From Naegleria gruberi (taxonomy: Eukaryota): 64,000 nt of DNA. This document shows, piece after piece, positions 44,827-52,601 of the stretch. Position 1 is the first letter of the stretch. Every line of letters starts with the position of its first letter. The stretch is from assembly GCA_000004985.1 (NCBI GenBank), contig GG738865.1; one strand, written 5' to 3'. A program made the position numbers and the translations under genes. The notes under the pieces were generated by a model that made no database searches, was not told where the DNA came from, and saw only the letters and a list, made by a program, of their open reading frames with translations.

Positions 44827-45011
44827 AATTAAAATTGAAAATCAAATATGAAATGTCAATGTTTTAGAAAGGCATAGCATGCTAGTGTCAAAAATAAACC
44901 AGAGTTAGAAATCTGTACGCTGGCTGGGTCAAAAATAGCATTTTTCTATAGTAAAGTTAATTAGGTAGCAATGTTATTTGACATAAATAGTTTTTGAATA
45001 ATAAACAAGAA

Positions 45012-45083
45012 TCCCGTGTGGTCCAATGGCTAAGATACCTGGCTCTCACCCAGGAGATCCGGGTTCAATTCCCGGCACGGGAG
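45012..45083 (+). tRNA. tRNA-Glu (anticodon CUC).
   Basis: Cloverleaf: acceptor TCCCGTG/CACGGGA+G, anticodon stem CCTGG/CCAGG with loop CTCTCAC (anticodon CTC), T-arm CCGGG-TTCAATT-CCCGG. Closely resembles eukaryotic tRNA-Glu. T5 run follows at 45090..45094. Confidence 0.9.
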
Positions 45084-45089
45084 GATTCA

Positions 45090-45094
45090 TTTTT
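45090..45094 (+). terminator. RNA polymerase III terminator T-run downstream of tRNA-Glu.
   Basis: TTTTT seven nt after the tRNA 3' end. Confidence 0.6.
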
Positions 45095-45375
45095 GCTGGC
45101 CTTCGTTTTTCATTCTCATGCTGCTTTTGCATTATCAATACTGCAATAATATAAATAAAGTCTTTTTTCAAATCATTTTGCAACTACTAGTACTAGTAAG
45201 TTAAATTAGTACTACGCACAAATATTCCAAAATCAAGTCATCTTGACTCATATCAAATATTTCAAATAGTAACAAAAACCGAAATTCATAGACCACATCA
45301 ATTTTCGCTTCCTCCACAAGTAGCACTTTCCACAAGTTCTCAATTATGTTGGGTCAGTCATCATCTTTAAAAAAA

Positions 45376-46695
45376 ATGGCAACTAAAGTAACCGAAACTC
45401 TTGTTGTGCTTTTGTTGTTATTCTTCGCTACTGCTTCTGGCATTAACGCATCATCACCTGCGGAGCCAGCATTCAAAAGTCAATTACGTTCATGTTTTGA
45501 AGCAAATAGAAATACCGAATGTTTGGCCACACAATCATCTTGGTCTTCATGTGGAGGTTCAGTTTATTCTTCATATCAACTTGCACTCTCCATCTCAATG
45601 AATTGTATGAGAAGTGTCTGTGGAAGTCAAAATAGTTTATGTTGCAATACCTATTGTACAATGTATGGTTTATCTGGATATGATCATTCAGTTTGTTTCA
45701 ATAAGTGTTTCAATGGATATACTGGTTCAGTTGTTGGTGCTGCAACTTTGATGAAAACAATCAAGAGTAGTTTGGATACCAATGTTGATTATGTTCCTCC
45801 TGCCACAGCTCAAAAGAAGGACGATGAAACCAAAGTCTATTGTGATATTCCATGTAATTCAGAATTTGCTTTCTATTCCACAACTGGTAAACAACCAAGT
45901 ATTTTAAATGGTGGTTTGAAGGCATTGTTGGCTTCTAATACCAAGACTAATACTTTGGCTGCTAAGAAAAAGCTCATTTCTTCTTGGTCAACCAAGGTTG
46001 GTTCCTCTAAGCCATCATCCTCATCCTCCTCCTCACGTAAGAGCATCAGCAGCATTAAAAGCATCATTGGAAGAAGTAATAGTGGTTACAACAAGGCCAT
46101 TTCAAAGAGCATCTCAAAATACCTTGGCTTCAAACCAGTTAAACAAATTAATAGTGATCTGGTCTATAAGAGACTTGTTAAATTTGTTTCAAGCATTCCA
46201 AGTCTTGGATACATCTTGAGAGGTATTCGTGATAAGAAAACCAGAACCTACCTTACAAGAGGTTACAAATTCATTCAAGCTGCTAGAAAACAAGTCTATC
46301 CACAAAAAGCATTTGCAATCTATGATGGTAAAGTATTGAATGTGAAAGCCACAGTTCAATTGGGTAATCCAGCATTGGTTAAGCAGAGAAGTACCATTTT
46401 CCCAATTCCATTCAATTCATTGACTCCATCTTCACTTTCAAAGAAATCCTTTTTCAATTCCAGTGTTAAACATAATCAAATCTGTACTGGTACAGCTATT
46501 GCCAAAGTGGAATATTATCGTAGATCTCGTATCACTTGTAAAAAGATCAAGTCATGGATTAGTGGAGCTTCAAAGATTAATCCAAAGAATATTTATCAAG
46601 TCAACAAGTTCCTCTTCCTTGTTTATAATCAATGTAAGAAAGCTAAAGCTACTTGTGTTGTTCCATTTGTTGAAGCAATCAAAACAACTGATTAA
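45376..46695 (+). CDS. Secreted cysteine-rich, Ser/Thr/Lys-rich (mucin-like) protein, paralogue A of a three-gene lineage-specific family.
   Basis: Signal peptide MATKVTETLVVLLLLFFATASG. Conserved N-domain SSPAEPAFKSQLRSCFEANRNTEC...CGGSVYSSYQLALSISMNCMRSVCGSQNSLCCNTYCTMYGLSGYDHSVCFNKCFNGY (10+ Cys). S/K-rich middle. Conserved C-terminal Cys module KVEYYRRSRITCKKIKSWI...KCKKAKATCVVPF. The first ATG at 45346 lies upstream of the probable signal-peptide start. Confidence 0.7.
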   Translation: MATKVTETLVVLLLLFFATASGINASSPAEPAFKSQLRSCFEANRNTECLATQSSWSSCGGSVYSSYQLALSISMNCMRSVCGSQNSLCCNTYCTMYGLSGYDHSVCFNKCFNGYTGSVVGAATLMKTIKSSLDTNVDYVPPATAQKKDDETKVYCDIPCNSEFAFYSTTGKQPSILNGGLKALLASNTKTNTLAAKKKLISSWSTKVGSSKPSSSSSSSRKSISSIKSIIGRSNSGYNKAISKSISKYLGFKPVKQINSDLVYKRLVKFVSSIPSLGYILRGIRDKKTRTYLTRGYKFIQAARKQVYPQKAFAIYDGKVLNVKATVQLGNPALVKQRSTIFPIPFNSLTPSSLSKKSFFNSSVKHNQICTGTAIAKVEYYRRSRITCKKIKSWISGASKINPKNIYQVNKFLFLVYNQCKKAKATCVVPFVEAIKTTD

Positions 46696-46904
46696 ATTTT
46701 TGTAATTCAATAACTTTTTACAAATATAATATTAATAATATTGAAAAATACTTATTACAATTACAGGTCTGTTACAAAATCTTTTAATGGATAGGAATAG
46801 CATTTTTAAAATACTCGCTCAAACTATATGCAAATTAAACAGTGTACTTTTCACCAAATGTGTATGTGACTCAAAACATCCAACTGTCACACCAGTAAAA
46901 AAAA

Positions 46905-47894
46905 ATGACATTGTCATCCAAACAAATTGTCGTTGTGTTAATTATTGTTGGATTCTGTGTTTCTTACACATTGGCTTCTTCTGCCAGCGAACCAGCATTC
47001 AAAAGTCAATTACGTTCATGTTTTGAAGGAAACAGAAACACAGAATGCATAGTCAATCAAGGAAGCTGGAATTCTTGTGGTCGTTCAGTTTATTCTTCCT
47101 ATCAATTAGCTGTTTCCATTTCAATGAATTGTATGAGAAGTGTTTGTGGTAGTCAAAATGGTTTATGTTGTAATACTTATTGTTCAATGTTTGGTTTATC
47201 TGGAAGTGATCATTCGAATTGTTTCTCCTCATGTTATAATTCATACAGGCCATCGACAAATGGTGGTTCATCTTTTGGTGGAAATATTCCTGCAGCTAGT
47301 GATGCTTTAACTGGTTCTGTATCTTGTTCTATTCCATGCGCTGCTGCTTTCTCCTTCTATGAAAATAAAGTAGCCGAAAGTGTGGCCAAAAAACCAGCAG
47401 AAGTCAAGACATTCAAAACTTTGGTCAAGAATTTACAATCTGGCAAACCAATCAAAAAATCAAATCCTGGCTACACAATCACCTCTGCCAAGACTTTGTC
47501 AACCAGCAGCCCTAGTTCTGCAACCTATTTCACAGCACTTAAACCAAAAGTTGTCCTGAAGGGAAGTGAACATAATCAAGTCTTACGTACCTCTATTGAA
47601 GAAGCTGTTCCAACAAACTTGGACTCGGCTCAATTTTACAATTCTCAAGTGGCATCCAATCAAATTTGTTCCAATTCAATGAAAGATGTTGTAAAGGTTT
47701 CAATTTTGAAGAATACCAAAATTGAATGTTCTAAATTGTTGCAATGGATTAAGAATGATAAGACAATTGCTCCTGAAAATTTGGAAAATGTTTATAATTT
47801 CATGTTGGTTTTGCATCAAAAGTGTTCTGCTTTGCCAAATAGTAAATGTGTCATGCCAAATGTTGGATCCATCAAGCTCACTAACACTAAATAA
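46905..47894 (+). CDS. Secreted cysteine-rich protein, paralogue B (more divergent).
   Basis: Signal peptide MTLSSKQIVVVLIIVGFCVSYTLASS, then EPAFKSQLRSCFEGNRNTECIVNQGSWNSCGRSVYSSYQLAVSISMNCMRSVCGSQNGLCCNTYCSMFGLSGSDHSNCF. C-terminal module ...KIECSKLLQWIKNDK...KCSALPNSKCVMPNVG. Shares 30-40-nt stretches with A and C that are identical at nucleotide level. Confidence 0.7.
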   Translation: MTLSSKQIVVVLIIVGFCVSYTLASSASEPAFKSQLRSCFEGNRNTECIVNQGSWNSCGRSVYSSYQLAVSISMNCMRSVCGSQNGLCCNTYCSMFGLSGSDHSNCFSSCYNSYRPSTNGGSSFGGNIPAASDALTGSVSCSIPCAAAFSFYENKVAESVAKKPAEVKTFKTLVKNLQSGKPIKKSNPGYTITSAKTLSTSSPSSATYFTALKPKVVLKGSEHNQVLRTSIEEAVPTNLDSAQFYNSQVASNQICSNSMKDVVKVSILKNTKIECSKLLQWIKNDKTIAPENLENVYNFMLVLHQKCSALPNSKCVMPNVGSIKLTNTK

Positions 47895-47969
47895 ATTGTG
47901 GATCTATCAATTAATAACTAATTTTTATTAGAAAGCACCCAAATCATAAATTTCCAAAATAAAATTATT

Positions 47970-49088
47970 TTAAAGAGTGTCAGTATTCAAATTAATTCTT
48001 CTAAACATTGGAACAACACATTGTTTAGACTTCTTTGGAATGAGAGATCTACACTTATTATGAACAATCATCATGAATTTGTAAACAGTAAGCAAATTAT
48101 TTGGTGAAATTTCTGAAACTTCCTTCATCCAACGTTGAATCTTGTTACAATTTACTCTAGATCTCTTATAATAGGTAACTTCAACTGTCTTTCCAGTATT
48201 GGCACAGATTTGATTTTTACCAACTTGGCTGCTTTTCAAAACGGGATTCAAAGGGACAACCTTATCAAGTGAAATGTCAAAAACTTGAAGTCTGTCACGA
48301 GTTACTTGAATAACATTGGAAATCATCTTTTTATCAGTTTTTCCTGATGATTTAGAGGTTGATTTAGTGACCTTTCCATTCTTAATAGTTGTGAGTTTAG
48401 TTTTTTTCACAAAAGACGAAATGAAAAGTTTCTTCTTTTTGCCCAATACTGAAACTCCACCATTTCCACTTGCTGTTCCAGTAGTACTATTTGAACCATT
48501 AATTTGAGAAAGGAGAGTTCTCAAGAAATTTCTTTCCTTTCTTGTTGGTTGTTCATTGGCAAAATAAAAAGCATAAGTAGCATCACATGAAACAGAACAT
48601 TTGACAATGGCTTTATCATCAGTGGTGGCACTTTTTGGAACAAAGTCAGAGTTATCATCGAATGGGATGGAAGCATAAGCAATAGAAGTAGAAATTGGTT
48701 TCATCAAAGTTGCAGCAGCAGAAACAACTGAACCAGTATATCCATTGAAACACTTATTGAAACAAACTGAATGATCATATCCAGATAAACCATACATTGT
48801 ACAATAAGTATTGCAACATAAACTATTTTGACTTCCACAAACACTTCTCATACAATTCATTGAAATGGAGAGTGCAAGTTGATATGAAGAATAAACTGAA
48901 CCTCCACATGAAGACCAAGATGATTGTGTGGCTAAACATTCGGTATTTCTATTTGCTTCAAAACATGAACGTAATTGACTTTTGAATGCTGGTTCCGCTG
49001 GAGATGATGCATTGACAAAAGATGAAGATGTGAGAAGGGCTGCCAACAAGACGAAACATGCCAAAACTAGTGGATTGAATCTTGTCAT
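47970..49088 (-). CDS. Secreted cysteine-rich protein, paralogue C, in inverted orientation (convergent with B).
   Basis: Probable start MTRFNPLVLACFVLLAALLTSSS (ATG at 49088; the ORF extends to 49124). The ~100-aa N-domain is identical to A at protein level and ~97% identical at nucleotide level. C-terminal module VEVTYYKRSRVNCNKIQRWMKE...KCRSLIPKKSKQCVVPMF. Confidence 0.7.
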   Translation of the reverse strand: MTRFNPLVLACFVLLAALLTSSSFVNASSPAEPAFKSQLRSCFEANRNTECLATQSSWSSCGGSVYSSYQLALSISMNCMRSVCGSQNSLCCNTYCTMYGLSGYDHSVCFNKCFNGYTGSVVSAAATLMKPISTSIAYASIPFDDNSDFVPKSATTDDKAIVKCSVSCDATYAFYFANEQPTRKERNFLRTLLSQINGSNSTTGTASGNGGVSVLGKKKKLFISSFVKKTKLTTIKNGKVTKSTSKSSGKTDKKMISNVIQVTRDRLQVFDISLDKVVPLNPVLKSSQVGKNQICANTGKTVEVTYYKRSRVNCNKIQRWMKEVSEISPNNLLTVYKFMMIVHNKCRSLIPKKSKQCVVPMFRRINLNTDTL

Positions 49089-49305
49089 TATTTTTTTTAA
49101 GCTTTCTTCAAAGATGTCACCCACAAGAACACTGACACAATCAAAATGGGTAAATTTGTCAAAAAAAATTTAACACACTAAATATCTTATAACCATCACC
49201 CGTCAATATTATTATTCGAATCCAATGAACATTCAAAGAGAGATGAAAGAAATTAAAGGGAACTTGCAAGTGAAAAGTTCCCGCCAAAAATAACTACAAA
49301 AAAAA

Positions 49306-52300
49306 ATGAGTAAAAACATATGGTTGCCGCCACTTTCGCTATCATCTCTGCAGAGAAATGATGGGAAGAACATCATGTTTGACACTCAGAAAGTAATCAA
49401 GCCGACCACCTGGTTGTATATAATGATGATACTGCTGATATTGTTAATGAATAGTGGAGGAGTTGTGAGATGTGGAAATGTTGTGGAAGTGGATGCTGAG
49501 GAAGTGAGGCAGTTGGATTTATATTTGAAAAAATCAAAACCTGATTTGGAAAATTCTCAGCTAGCTTTATTGGCATTTAAGGAGACGAGTCAAATGCTTA
49601 TACTCACCAAGACATTGTCATCCTTGTCCATCACACCAAGAACAATATTTTACTCTGCAGGGTTTATCGGAAATACTATTGTTCAATTGAATGCAAGTGA
49701 AATCAAATTCACCTCCTTGGCTAATGTATTTAACAATTCAACAAGACCATACAAAGTTGTTGATAGGCTTACATCATTATGCTCTTCTACTCTTTCTCAA
49801 TTATATCAGAACAACACCTTTATTCCAAATTATTATATTTGTTTTTTCAAAACAACACTCACATCAGAGAATAGAGTTTTCTTCTCAACAACAAGTGAAG
49901 GATTCAGATGTTTAAAACTAAATTCGGATGGGGATGTAATAACCAAGGATGTTTCTAAGGGATTTATTGAAGATTTTGCTACCTCATTATGTGTTATAAC
50001 CATAATATTTATAGCCCTTCTGTGGGTACAAGGATCATTTAAAAGGAGAATTATTGATACAAAGAGATATCCCTTTACCAATTATTACTTTGGAAACGAT
50101 ACTGATTGGAACTCTTCAACTTTTTCGGATCTTTCAGTAACTCTTAGACCAATATTTCCATTCTTTAAACATTTTTCCAATCAGTTTGACAAGCTTTATA
50201 AACTGATATTCAGATCAATTCAAAACAAAGTGGACCAGGAACATATTAGGAAGTATAAGAAATTTGGCTCTTCAACACTGCTGAAATACCAATTATTCTT
50301 CGACTTTTTCCTCTTTATAGTTATTAGTTGCTTATCAATGGTGCAGTTATTTGTTCCTTCTGTACTATATTTCCCAAATTTTATTCAAATACCTATTAAT
50401 TTTGACCTTGGGAATGACGAAACCTTCACAAGTTATTGGATAGGAGGGGCTGATTTTGTACCTATCAGTTTGGGTTTTTGGTTAATATCCCTCACTTTGA
50501 TGATATTGGGAATAATTTTGTTAATAGTTACTTCTAGTTCAAAAGAAAAGATGATGTATTGGAGCACAAACTCTTTGCCAGACACCAACATTTTGGTTTT
50601 CACTGATGCAATCTTCAAAATTATTTTCATAGTCTTGATTAATGTGATAATCATTTTACTACCGTTCTGGACATTTACCATTAAGGGAGTTCTTATGGTG
50701 GTTATTACAATAGCATCTATTTTCTATGGGAGTCAACAAATTTTAATTCCAACAGAGAAGGTTATTCACGCTATTCATGATGGAAATTATAAGATGGTTG
50801 TTGCCTTCTTGATGTTTGCATATTTTAAGGAACTTCTAGTGATCATACCATTTTTTATTCAGATATTCATGGTGGCCGAAACTATATTTGGGCTAGTTTG
50901 GAGCTTGATTCTTTCCTTTGTTGCAAACAACAGCAAGCTTTCCTTGATTGGTATTTTTGGTATTGTAATTAATTCTGCAACAAGTTTACTTCAAGACTTA
51001 CTACAGCCATCCAGAGTTACCAGGAAAAAGATTGTGGAAAGGTCAGATACATTCGTTTTTCCCTCTCTAACAAAGACCAGCACACAATTCATCCTTGATA
51101 ATGTCGCTGCAAAATATGGTGGCATTATTAATACCTACTCTAAACTGGTAGAAAGTAATGAGATGGTGGATTATACATACAAGGATATTCTCTCATTAAA
51201 TGACAACTTGGAAGAACTTAAGGACATTACAAGAAAAAGAAGTCAGTCTGTTGGAAAATCTGAAAACGGTGAAGCTAAGCTAGCAGCAACAACTATTGAA
51301 AAAATTCACAACCCTGTTAACATCAAATTCGAAAAAAATGAAGACAAAAACGAAGAGGAGCTAAAAACAAGATATACGGAGATCAATGATAGGCCAAAGT
51401 ACATGCATGTTCTCTTCAAGAAAGAAATTGCCTTACTCGTTAGAGGCATCTTCCTTTCAACGCAAGAGAAGAAAAATGAAAAATTGAGAGTAATCTTTAA
51501 GAGAGGAGAGAGGCTTTATACTCCATTGTTGAATACAGACATCAGAAGAATCCATCACAATTTAGTGGGTAGAGTCAAGATAGCAACAGGAAATCTGAGT
51601 AATTATTTAGTAGTAATTTTGATTGCAATGATTATTTTCTTGTCTTTTACTTATTCTGGTGCTGAAAGTGATGGTATGGACATTATGTCAAATATGGCTA
51701 TTGTTATTTCAATCTTTATTCCACAACTTTTTGGAAGATTGGATGAAGGACAAGTTGATGAACTATTCGAAAGAAGAATTGAGGAAACTATCCTTTTAAC
51801 CAAGAGAGATCTTGCAAAGAAACTTGACTTACCAGAGAAGGATCTCAATTTTTGCATTTTCAATTTTCAAAACGATTCAGATATTAGTAACTTTTTAGAG
51901 CACAACACCCCAGCAGTGTCTGAAACTATTGGAAGAAAAATGTAAGTATATTTTAACGAATTGTTTTACTTGAATCAAATGAAAGATTGGAACATTGGGA
52001 AAGTGCTTCAACAAATGGATTTATTACAGCTCAAAAATTCAAGCCACTCATGCTTATTGTATGGGATGAAACCCTTAAAATCAATGCAAAGAAGGGCACT
52101 GCTTCCGCTACAAATGACTATCTCAAGACTCATAGCCAATTCTTGACATCATTTTCAAACATAATTTATTGTATTAGTAATTTTGAGGCTGACTCCTTTG
52201 TGAGTGCTTACGAATTCATTCACGCTGTGGAGCTTCTCAAAAAATCAATCACAAGAAAGGAAGAAGATCAATGCTCAGATATGGATATAACATTTGCATT

Positions 52301-52601
52301 TCTATTCTTTTGCTATTTGAGAGGAAGAAGTGCTGAAGTAGGAATGGTGAATTGTAATTCTTTAGAAGTTAGTTTTGCAGAAGAAGAGTATAACCATTTC
52401 TTTTCCACTTTCTATACTTGGATAGCTGTTAACGATACCAAGAGAGAAAAGCTAAAGGAAGCAAAACAATTTATTGAGTTGGTATTCTCTGTGTATAGCT
52501 CTGAGCAGCGTCTATCATTGGAACATTTCTTGAATAGCTATAGATCGGTCAGAAGTGCAATGTCCAACACAAGTAGATCGATTGAAATCGAAGAGTTTTG
52601 A
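49306..52601 (+). CDS. Large multi-pass membrane protein (~1080 aa) with cytosolic C-terminal domain. join(49306..51941, 51986..52601).
   Basis: N-glycosylation-rich ectodomain followed by about 10 hydrophobic helices. The stop at 51943 overlaps a GTAAGT donor. A 44-nt intron (acceptor AAAG at 51984-85, phase 2) joins in frame to ORF 51987..52601 (...GRK-I-LEHWESAS...). Family not recognised. Confidence 0.55.

Follow-up and report, generated by a model that had tools for sequence, protein, structure and literature searches.

A Naegleria gruberi cluster of cysteine-rich, probably secreted paralogues with a bacterial-type domain homogenized by gene conversion

The window examined here is a stretch of 64,000 nucleotides (nt) from contig GG738865.1 of GenBank assembly GCA_000004985.1; a protein search identified its source as Naegleria gruberi, and it belongs to an 820-kb scaffold. 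It contains three paralogous genes, referred to here as A, B, and C, whose open reading frames (ORFs) span positions 45346 to 49124. The explanation that we consider likely overall is that these genes encode secreted, disulfide-rich, strongly basic chimeras in which a bacterial-type N-terminal domain (the N-domain) is joined to C-terminal parts specific to Naegleria. In A and C, a tract covering this domain has been homogenized by ectopic gene conversion. A first-pass annotation of the window, made from the sequence alone, had proposed concerted evolution for the cluster, and rightly so, but its description of the genes as orphans of a mucin-like kind was not borne out.

Horizontal transfer, fusion, and gene conversion are known kinds of event. 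What is new is this chimeric family and the apparently discordant ancestry of its N-domain in two congeners. One domain appears to display three processes, namely, inter-domain transfer, fusion to lineage-specific sequence, and homogenization by conversion. The family is undescribed, with neither a Pfam model nor a fold relative, and through it an amoeba that feeds on bacteria is connected with an uncommon bacterial operon organized around a paralogue of the apolipoprotein N-acyltransferase Lnt.

Architecture of the genes and their bacterial relatives

Gene A (NAEGRDRAFT_67035, XP_002677700) occupies positions 45376 to 46695 on the plus strand (annotated ATG at 45376) and encodes 439 amino acids (aa). 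Gene B (XP_002677701; 329 aa) follows at 46905 to 47894, also on the plus strand (annotated ATG at 46905), and gene C (NAEGRDRAFT_48735, XP_002677800; 372 aa) lies at 47970 to 49088 on the minus strand (annotated ATG at 49088); it is inverted with respect to the other two genes and converges on B across a spacer of 75 nt. All three paralogues are present where the first-pass annotation had placed them, in the tandem-plus-inverted arrangement that it described, and no further copy of the family was found within the window.

The three proteins also share the domain layout that had been read from the sequence. A hydrophobic segment ending in A-S-S (the predicted signal peptide, aa 1 to 25 in A) is followed by a 90-aa N-domain with 10 cysteines (aa 26 to 115 in A), a CxxxC...FY motif (in A, CDIPC at aa 156 to 160), a variable, basic Ser/Thr/Lys-rich middle, and a C-terminal module of ~75 aa with four cysteines (the C-domain, aa 367 to 439 in A). 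The middle forms a linker that in A lies between the CDIPC motif and the C-domain and is shortest in B. On the DNA, the N-domains lie at 45451 to 45720 (A, plus strand), 46977 to 47246 (B, plus strand; 83% nucleotide identity to A and C), and 48738 to 49007 (C, minus strand). The C-domains lie at 46474 to 46692 (A, plus strand), 47658 to 47891 (B, plus strand), and 47973 to 48215 (C, minus strand).

Each mature protein contains 16 cysteines and carries 31 to 61 Lys plus Arg residues against 17 to 20 Asp plus Glu. Each has a single N-terminal hydrophobic stretch without any further membrane-spanning segment, and all three are probably secreted. The label "mucin-like" finds no support in the middle region, in which Ser, Thr, and Pro together make up 28 to 31% of residues, Pro 3 to 7%, and Lys 9 to 13%; Tandem Repeats Finder reported there only a 21- to 23-nt run of Ser codons. 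This run, a TCATCC microsatellite of ~3.5 copies at 46013 to 46035 that encodes SSSSSSS in A, is the sole tandem repeat in the cluster.

The first-pass annotation had taken the family to be lineage-specific, with no match that it recognized, and a word-indexed search of 5.8 billion proteins with C did return only A, B, and C, all from N. gruberi. An exhaustive HMMER search with a three-sequence profile found five additional proteins, and a second profile search brought the number to twelve in all, with E-values of 2e-32 to 6e-45 for the bacterial homologues. The claim of a lineage-specific family falls with these hits, among which is a full-length homologue in Naegleria lovaniensis. Every other hit is a protein of 114 to 145 aa that consists of a signal peptide and an N-domain only, and wherever the location could be determined, it was a bacterial contig.

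The mature sequence of the bacterial proteins aligns in its entirety to the N-domain, with up to 74% identity, and in tblastn searches against the window the bacterial proteins match at 60 to 72% identity over 92 to 123 aa. The N-domain of A is thus homologous to the whole of the mature bacterial 114- to 116-aa proteins. The bacterial members (P0004, P0006, P0008, P0011 to P0017, and a protein of Acidovorax lacteus) share with those of Naegleria the cysteine framework C-x36-C-x4-C-x6-CC-x3-C-x12-C-x3-C, and the A-S-S site after the hydrophobic region is the same in both. Eight framework cysteines are conserved across bacteria and Naegleria; N. gruberi has gained one pair, and some bacterial members have lost one pair jointly. 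The differences lie in the architecture. The bacterial proteins, themselves uncharacterized, stand alone at ~115 to 145 aa, a size that A, B, and C all exceed, and are operon-linked to genes for a lipoprotein and an Lnt-like protein, whereas the Naegleria proteins have an added 200- to 320-aa linker and C-domain, an extra cysteine pair, and no Lnt neighbor.

The bacterial contigs fall into two subgroups. Those of the high-GC subgroup (L002 to L010, L014, and L015; 60 to 64% GC) have the gene order ~300-aa lipoprotein, 114- to 116-aa family protein, and Lnt-like protein of 525 to 547 aa, set among typical bacterial genes, such as those for an ABC transporter and a GGDEF protein. Contigs bearing this operon range from 60 to 67% GC overall. 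In the mid-GC subgroup (L011 and L012; 45 to 48% GC), L011 carries the family gene, genes for two paralogous secreted proteins, and an Lnt gene, in that order; the 1.6-kb contig L012 has the family gene together with both paralogues but stops short of any Lnt gene. A conserved, uncharacterized operon can be delineated at L002 5294 to 9888, L013 5900 to 8812, and L011 340 to 3471 and on L004, L007, and L009. It encodes the small cysteine-rich protein, a divergent N-acyltransferase resembling Lnt, and either a ~300-aa lipoprotein or two secreted paralogues (137 and 218 aa). The Lnt-like proteins score 131 to 134 bits against TIGR00546, whose equivalog cutoff is 132.9. The closest named protein to the Lnt of the mid-GC subgroup, from a Thiothrix metagenome-assembled genome, is only 33% identical to it, and the taxon of this subgroup is not fixed. 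Pfam and NCBIfam, the latter searched with one bacterial member and its operon neighbors, hold no model for the family or for its non-Lnt operon neighbors, and the 304-aa lipoprotein and the 218-aa operon protein matched no PDB sequence.

The family is rare in bacteria. An alignment-based scan of GTDB found the gene in 1 of 185,579 species representatives, Acidovorax lacteus JCM 31890 (Comamonadaceae; NZ_BAABEX010000011), where it lies in the same operon; a GTDB scan with one bacterial protein as the query gave no match. Metagenomes contributed ~15 contigs, and a further metagenome scan added two loci only. No copy was found among viral contigs, searched with N- and C-domain alignments, or plasmids, so that no giant-virus or plasmid vector is evident. 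In bacteria, the family gene has diverged in step with its two operon neighbors, those for the lipoprotein and Lnt, and this codivergence suggests that the operon has been inherited vertically there. On the amoebal side, tblastn searches of the window with the operon lipoprotein, the Lnt, and a 518-aa protein found nothing. An 879-aa membrane protein encoded next to gene C was considered as a counterpart of Lnt and rejected, as tblastn shows no similarity.

Origin of the N-domain

Naegleria lovaniensis has a single gene of this family, compared with three in N. gruberi. Its product (XP_044541618; 356 aa) has the full layout, and its C-domain matches that of C (BLASTP E = 2e-8). The gene is flanked on one side by orthologues of tubulin-tyrosine ligase (TTL; 86% identical) and a Myb-like gene and on the other by the orthologue of window ORF 51987 to 52601. 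Given this synteny and the full layout, the common ancestor probably had one gene with an N-domain and a C-domain at this locus, which N. gruberi expanded to three. The linker and the four-Cys C-domain were found only in Naegleria, and C-domain identity among family members is just 26 to 36%, indicating fast divergence. Within its N-domain, after ...CCNTFCKM, the N. lovaniensis gene (PYSW02000081.1, L001 10001 to 11186) has an intron of ~118 nt that is missing from all three N. gruberi genes.

The N-domains of the two species have different bacterial affinities. In their mature cores, the three N. gruberi proteins show 59 to 74% identity to the high-GC, Comamonadaceae-type proteins, and B matches P0011 and P0013 without a difference over 35 aa; identity to P0004 is 54 to 58%, and identity to the N. 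lovaniensis N-domain is only 40 to 41%. The closest relative of the N. lovaniensis domain is the mid-GC protein P0006 (51%), against 33 to 39% for the high-GC clade. Naegleria monophyly appeared in none of 300 neighbor-joining bootstrap trees, while the split of N. lovaniensis, P0006, and P0008 from N. gruberi and the high-GC bacteria appeared in 100% of them. Quartet-informative sites averaged 6.7 for the latter split versus 0.6 and 0.8 for the alternatives. Furthermore, N. lovaniensis and the mid-GC proteins have a 2- to 3-aa deletion in common, and N. lovaniensis exclusively shares six to nine residues with mid-GC bacteria but none or one with N. gruberi. Because the two N-domains group with different bacterial subgroups, the domain may well have been acquired or replaced at this locus more than once, a proposition to which we give about as much credence as doubt. 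If different bacterial ancestries at one locus prove true, they would constitute an unusual case of a eukaryotic domain replaced by a horizontally acquired homologue.

The strongest alternative is a single ancient transfer from a bacterium to Naegleria followed by vertical descent, in which the fast-evolving N. lovaniensis copy joins the mid-GC proteins through long-branch attraction. Parsimony favors one origin for the entire gene, given its syntenic location and the C-domain common to both species; fast divergence is also seen in the C-domain, and the tree is a neighbor-joining one on a short alignment. A single transfer does not sit easily, however, with the greater closeness of N. lovaniensis to P0006 than to either N. 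gruberi or the high-GC clade, with the exclusive residues and the deletion that tie it to mid-GC bacteria, or with the absence of a monophyletic Naegleria from all the bootstrap trees. We regard it as a minority reading that still deserves some weight.

On either of these views the N-domain would have entered Naegleria from bacteria, the donor of the N. gruberi version being close to Acidovorax-type Comamonadaceae. The simplest reading is that the domain originated in bacteria and was transferred into Naegleria, and we hold it with good confidence, because the gene is retained next to Lnt in both bacterial subgroups, because it codiverges with its operon neighbors, and because the only eukaryotes in which the domain was found are two Naegleria species. 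The same observations stand against the reverse direction, in which the domain arose in Naegleria and was captured from hosts by amoeba-associated bacteria. Host genes are known to be acquired by such bacteria, and a capture would fit the rarity of the bacterial family, which has a single GTDB representative, turns up on few metagenome contigs, and was found on neither plasmids nor viral contigs. Two captures of exactly the N-domain would be needed, though, each landing by an Lnt gene or replacing a resident homologue, and the reverse direction seems improbable to us.

Several points weigh against the origin proposed here, that is, a bacterial N-domain taken up into secreted Naegleria proteins. 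The argument for the direction of transfer comes from distribution and from operon context rather than from a rooted tree. All trees are distance based, on ~88 columns, and N. lovaniensis forms a long branch in them. There is no obvious mechanism for the replacement of a resident domain of 33% GC by a bacterial gene of 61% GC, and the GC content at third codon positions of the N. gruberi N-domains (0.15 to 0.21) retains no trace of a high-GC source, so that any transfer must have taken place long enough ago for amelioration to be complete. The restriction of the domain to two Naegleria species holds for a search that did not reach N. fowleri or other members of the genus at the DNA level. The signal peptides of A, B, and C, finally, were called from hydropathy only.

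Bacterial envelope-acting genes have been acquired by eukaryotes and redeployed as secreted proteins in other cases, such as the domesticated amidase effectors, and horizontal transfer has reportedly been found for Hydra cuticle proteins as well. The Naegleria genes resemble such cases in that a gene for an exported bacterial protein resides in a eukaryote with host codon usage, a signal peptide that works in those cases and is predicted here, and purifying selection. They differ in that the N-domain is fused to lineage-specific parts, in that no enzymatic activity or ligand is assigned to it, and in that two congeners appear to hold versions of different bacterial affinity at one locus.

Gene conversion confined to the N-domain

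A repeat search of the window found an inverted repeat of 299 nt, 97% complementary, between positions 45445 to 45743 in A (plus strand) and 48715 to 49013 in C (minus strand); the corresponding A/B and B/C repeats, of 237 and 252 nt, are both at 83%. The A/C tract, as delimited by the inverted repeat, a sliding alignment, and synonymous divergence (dS), extends from the signal-peptide cleavage region to ~23 nt beyond the N-domain. When A and C were aligned in sliding windows with their flanks included, 56 to 60 identities per 60 positions were reached only at ~45445 to 45745. Outside these sharp edges identity was far lower (20 to 39 of 60), both downstream and in the codons of the signal peptide and the DNA upstream, and the upstream DNA cannot be aligned. 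A and C have exact runs of 84, 68, and 59 nt in common.

Estimates by the Nei-Gojobori method give the same picture. Seven synonymous differences and one nonsynonymous difference separate the N-domains of A and C (dS of 0.12 and nonsynonymous divergence [dN] of 0.004), in good agreement with the first-pass estimate of ~97% nucleotide identity with mostly synonymous differences. Elsewhere in the two genes dS is 1.14 in the signal peptide, 2.22 in the middle, and 0.97 in the C-domain, so that a discrete tract with a dS of 0.12 stands between coding flanks at 0.97 to 2.2. The common ancestor of the tract is therefore more recent than that of the remaining parts of the genes, and the tract is the product of ectopic gene conversion between paralogues that lie 3 kb from each other in inverted orientation. 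The near-identical antisense ORFs at 45473 to 45661 and 48797 to 48985, which the first-pass annotation had pointed to as a symptom of this identity, are indeed present but are a trivial by-product of the tract.

It had also been suggested that a very recent inverted duplication could account for the A/C identity, and extreme purifying selection in the absence of conversion might be invoked as well. The N-domain protein is certainly under strong constraint, given its very low dN and the ~70% identity that it keeps even with bacteria. A recent duplication, however, would have kept the whole gene and its flanks alike, and everything beyond the ~300-nt tract is saturated, with dS of 1 to 2 and unalignable upstream DNA. 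Nor can protein constraint or codon bias alone bring dS down to 0.12, as the same domain shows a dS of 0.54 to 0.75 in the A/B and B/C comparisons. An explanation that dispenses with gene conversion is thus very improbable.

Gene B is more diverged. The identical stretches of 30 to 40 nt attributed to it by the first-pass annotation are borne out, as it matches A and C exactly over runs of 37 and 40 nt where ~17 nt would be expected (P of ~0.001 in shuffles that keep codon position). Such runs are compatible with, and suggest, occasional participation of B in conversion via short tracts. Six A/C differences in the tract are all specific to A, with B agreeing with C, and five of them are changes from AT to GC; conversion could have been biased, or selection on the codons of A could have been relaxed.

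Why conversion should be confined to the N-domain may be explained by selection. Only there does purifying selection appear to keep enough nucleotide identity between the paralogues, and this segment would consequently be the only one able to form heteroduplex. With heteroduplex limited to the N-domain, homogenization there would be self-reinforcing. Concerted evolution via ectopic conversion has its classic cases in globin duplicates, palindrome arms, and the surface-antigen families of protists. The Naegleria cluster shows the same signature of a sharp tract of near identity and low dS amid saturated inverted paralogues 3 kb apart. It differs in that the tract is only ~300 nt long and matches one domain, the one of bacterial affinity.

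An environmental contig of 2052 nt (L016; ENA ERZ929261) provides a second view of the cluster. It is 97.9% identical to and collinear with positions 46434 to 48486 of the window, and it carries the 3' end of A, then B, then the 3' end of C, in the same order. This contig represents a second N. gruberi-like strain and confirms the arrangement of the cluster. Between the strains, the ratio of nonsynonymous to synonymous polymorphism (pN/pS) is 0.22 for B (allele P0019) and 0.33 for the 3' part of C, from which we conclude that the genes are functional; A, B, and C are under purifying selection. Interstrain pS is ~0.04, lower than the dS of 0.12 in the A/C tract, which places the A/C conversion before the split of the strains. 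That the cluster or its bacterial similarity is an artifact of assembly or contamination has practically no chance of being correct, since nothing was found in its favor, the genes have 33% GC and codon usage typical of N. gruberi and sit among eukaryotic genes on the scaffold, the arrangement is reproduced by an independent environmental contig, and the bacterial copies were recovered from one isolate genome as well as from numerous samples.

Structure, possible function, and neighboring features

The N-domain is predicted to be all-helical, and its AlphaFold2 model has six helices with a mean predicted local distance difference test score (pLDDT) of 75.5; the C-domain model, built from five sequences, reached a pLDDT of 48 and was not used. 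Cysteine covariation suggests two disulfide pairs, C59-C69, present in N. gruberi only, and C104-C117, whose members are lost together in some bacterial proteins (numbering from the longer ORF of A starting at 45346). Pfam gave no family at E ≤ 0.1 for full-length A, B, or C, nor did the N-domains match one at E ≤ 5, and the N-domain profile found nothing among PDB sequences. Literature searches by accession and by topic turned up no mention of the genes or the family. With no record in Pfam, NCBIfam, PDB, or the literature, this is not a well-known family under another name. NCBI and UniRef do call the product of gene B a "nucleoporin," but XP_002677701 has a predicted signal peptide, 16 cysteines, no Pfam hit, and no nucleoporin domain, and the name is wrong.

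In diderm bacteria a Sec signal directs proteins to the periplasm, where lipoproteins and the periplasm-facing Lnt work. The combination of a Sec signal, a neighboring lipoprotein, and such an Lnt makes an envelope- or lipid-related role plausible for the bacterial protein. By analogy, A, B, and C might function outside the cell, with an N-domain that would bind a lipid or bacterial-envelope ligand, as inherited from a periplasmic, Lnt-linked ancestor, and with a basic Ser/Thr-rich linker and C-domain that would tether it by anchoring or cross-linking at the amoeba surface, the cyst wall, or the prey interface. This is a conjecture that we advance with considerable doubt, and the failure to find any fold relative counts against it.

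The main alternative to ligand binding is a purely structural role for A, B, and C in an extracellular matrix or cyst wall. Entamoeba Jacob lectins and Giardia cyst wall proteins (CWPs) are cyst-wall proteins that mix cysteine-rich modules with other regions (PMC2698119, PMC2924369), and their general layout is similar, with a signal peptide, compact cysteine-rich modules, and a low-complexity Ser/Thr-rich spacer. The likeness ends there, as no relationship in sequence, Pfam domain, or fold links them to A, B, and C. The chitin- or cellulose-binding domains or leucine-rich repeats plus Cys-rich domains that mark protist cyst-wall lectins (Jacob, Jessie, Giardia CWP, and Acanthamoeba Luke, Leo, and Jonah) are lacking in A, B, and C. 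The six-cysteine pattern of the saposin fold, found in saposin-like pore formers (naegleriapores and amoebapores), was not found in them either.

The conjecture of envelope-ligand binding can be combined with that of repeated acquisition. The same domain would have been taken twice by one locus, with a Comamonadaceae-type version replacing an older one in N. gruberi and then spreading by conversion, and a new disulfide-rich helical fold, tied to Lnt acylation in bacteria, would have been redeployed to recognize bacterial envelope lipids or lipoproteins. Taken jointly, these two proposals remain tentative.

The surrounding DNA is AT rich (~33% GC for the window) and gene dense, with long ORFs without introns, and its eukaryotic genes include those for an F-box protein, TTL, and EIPR1. 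Apart from A-rich start contexts, no promoter motif common to the regions upstream of A, B, and C was found. The 879-aa protein mentioned above, a multipass membrane protein with no Pfam match, is encoded on the plus strand by ORF 49306 to 51945, separated from gene C by a divergent intergenic region of 181 nt. On the other side of the cluster, a tRNA-Glu(CTC) gene lies at 45012 to 45083 on the plus strand, ~290 nt upstream of gene A, and the ORF at 44994 to 45149 is merely its translation.

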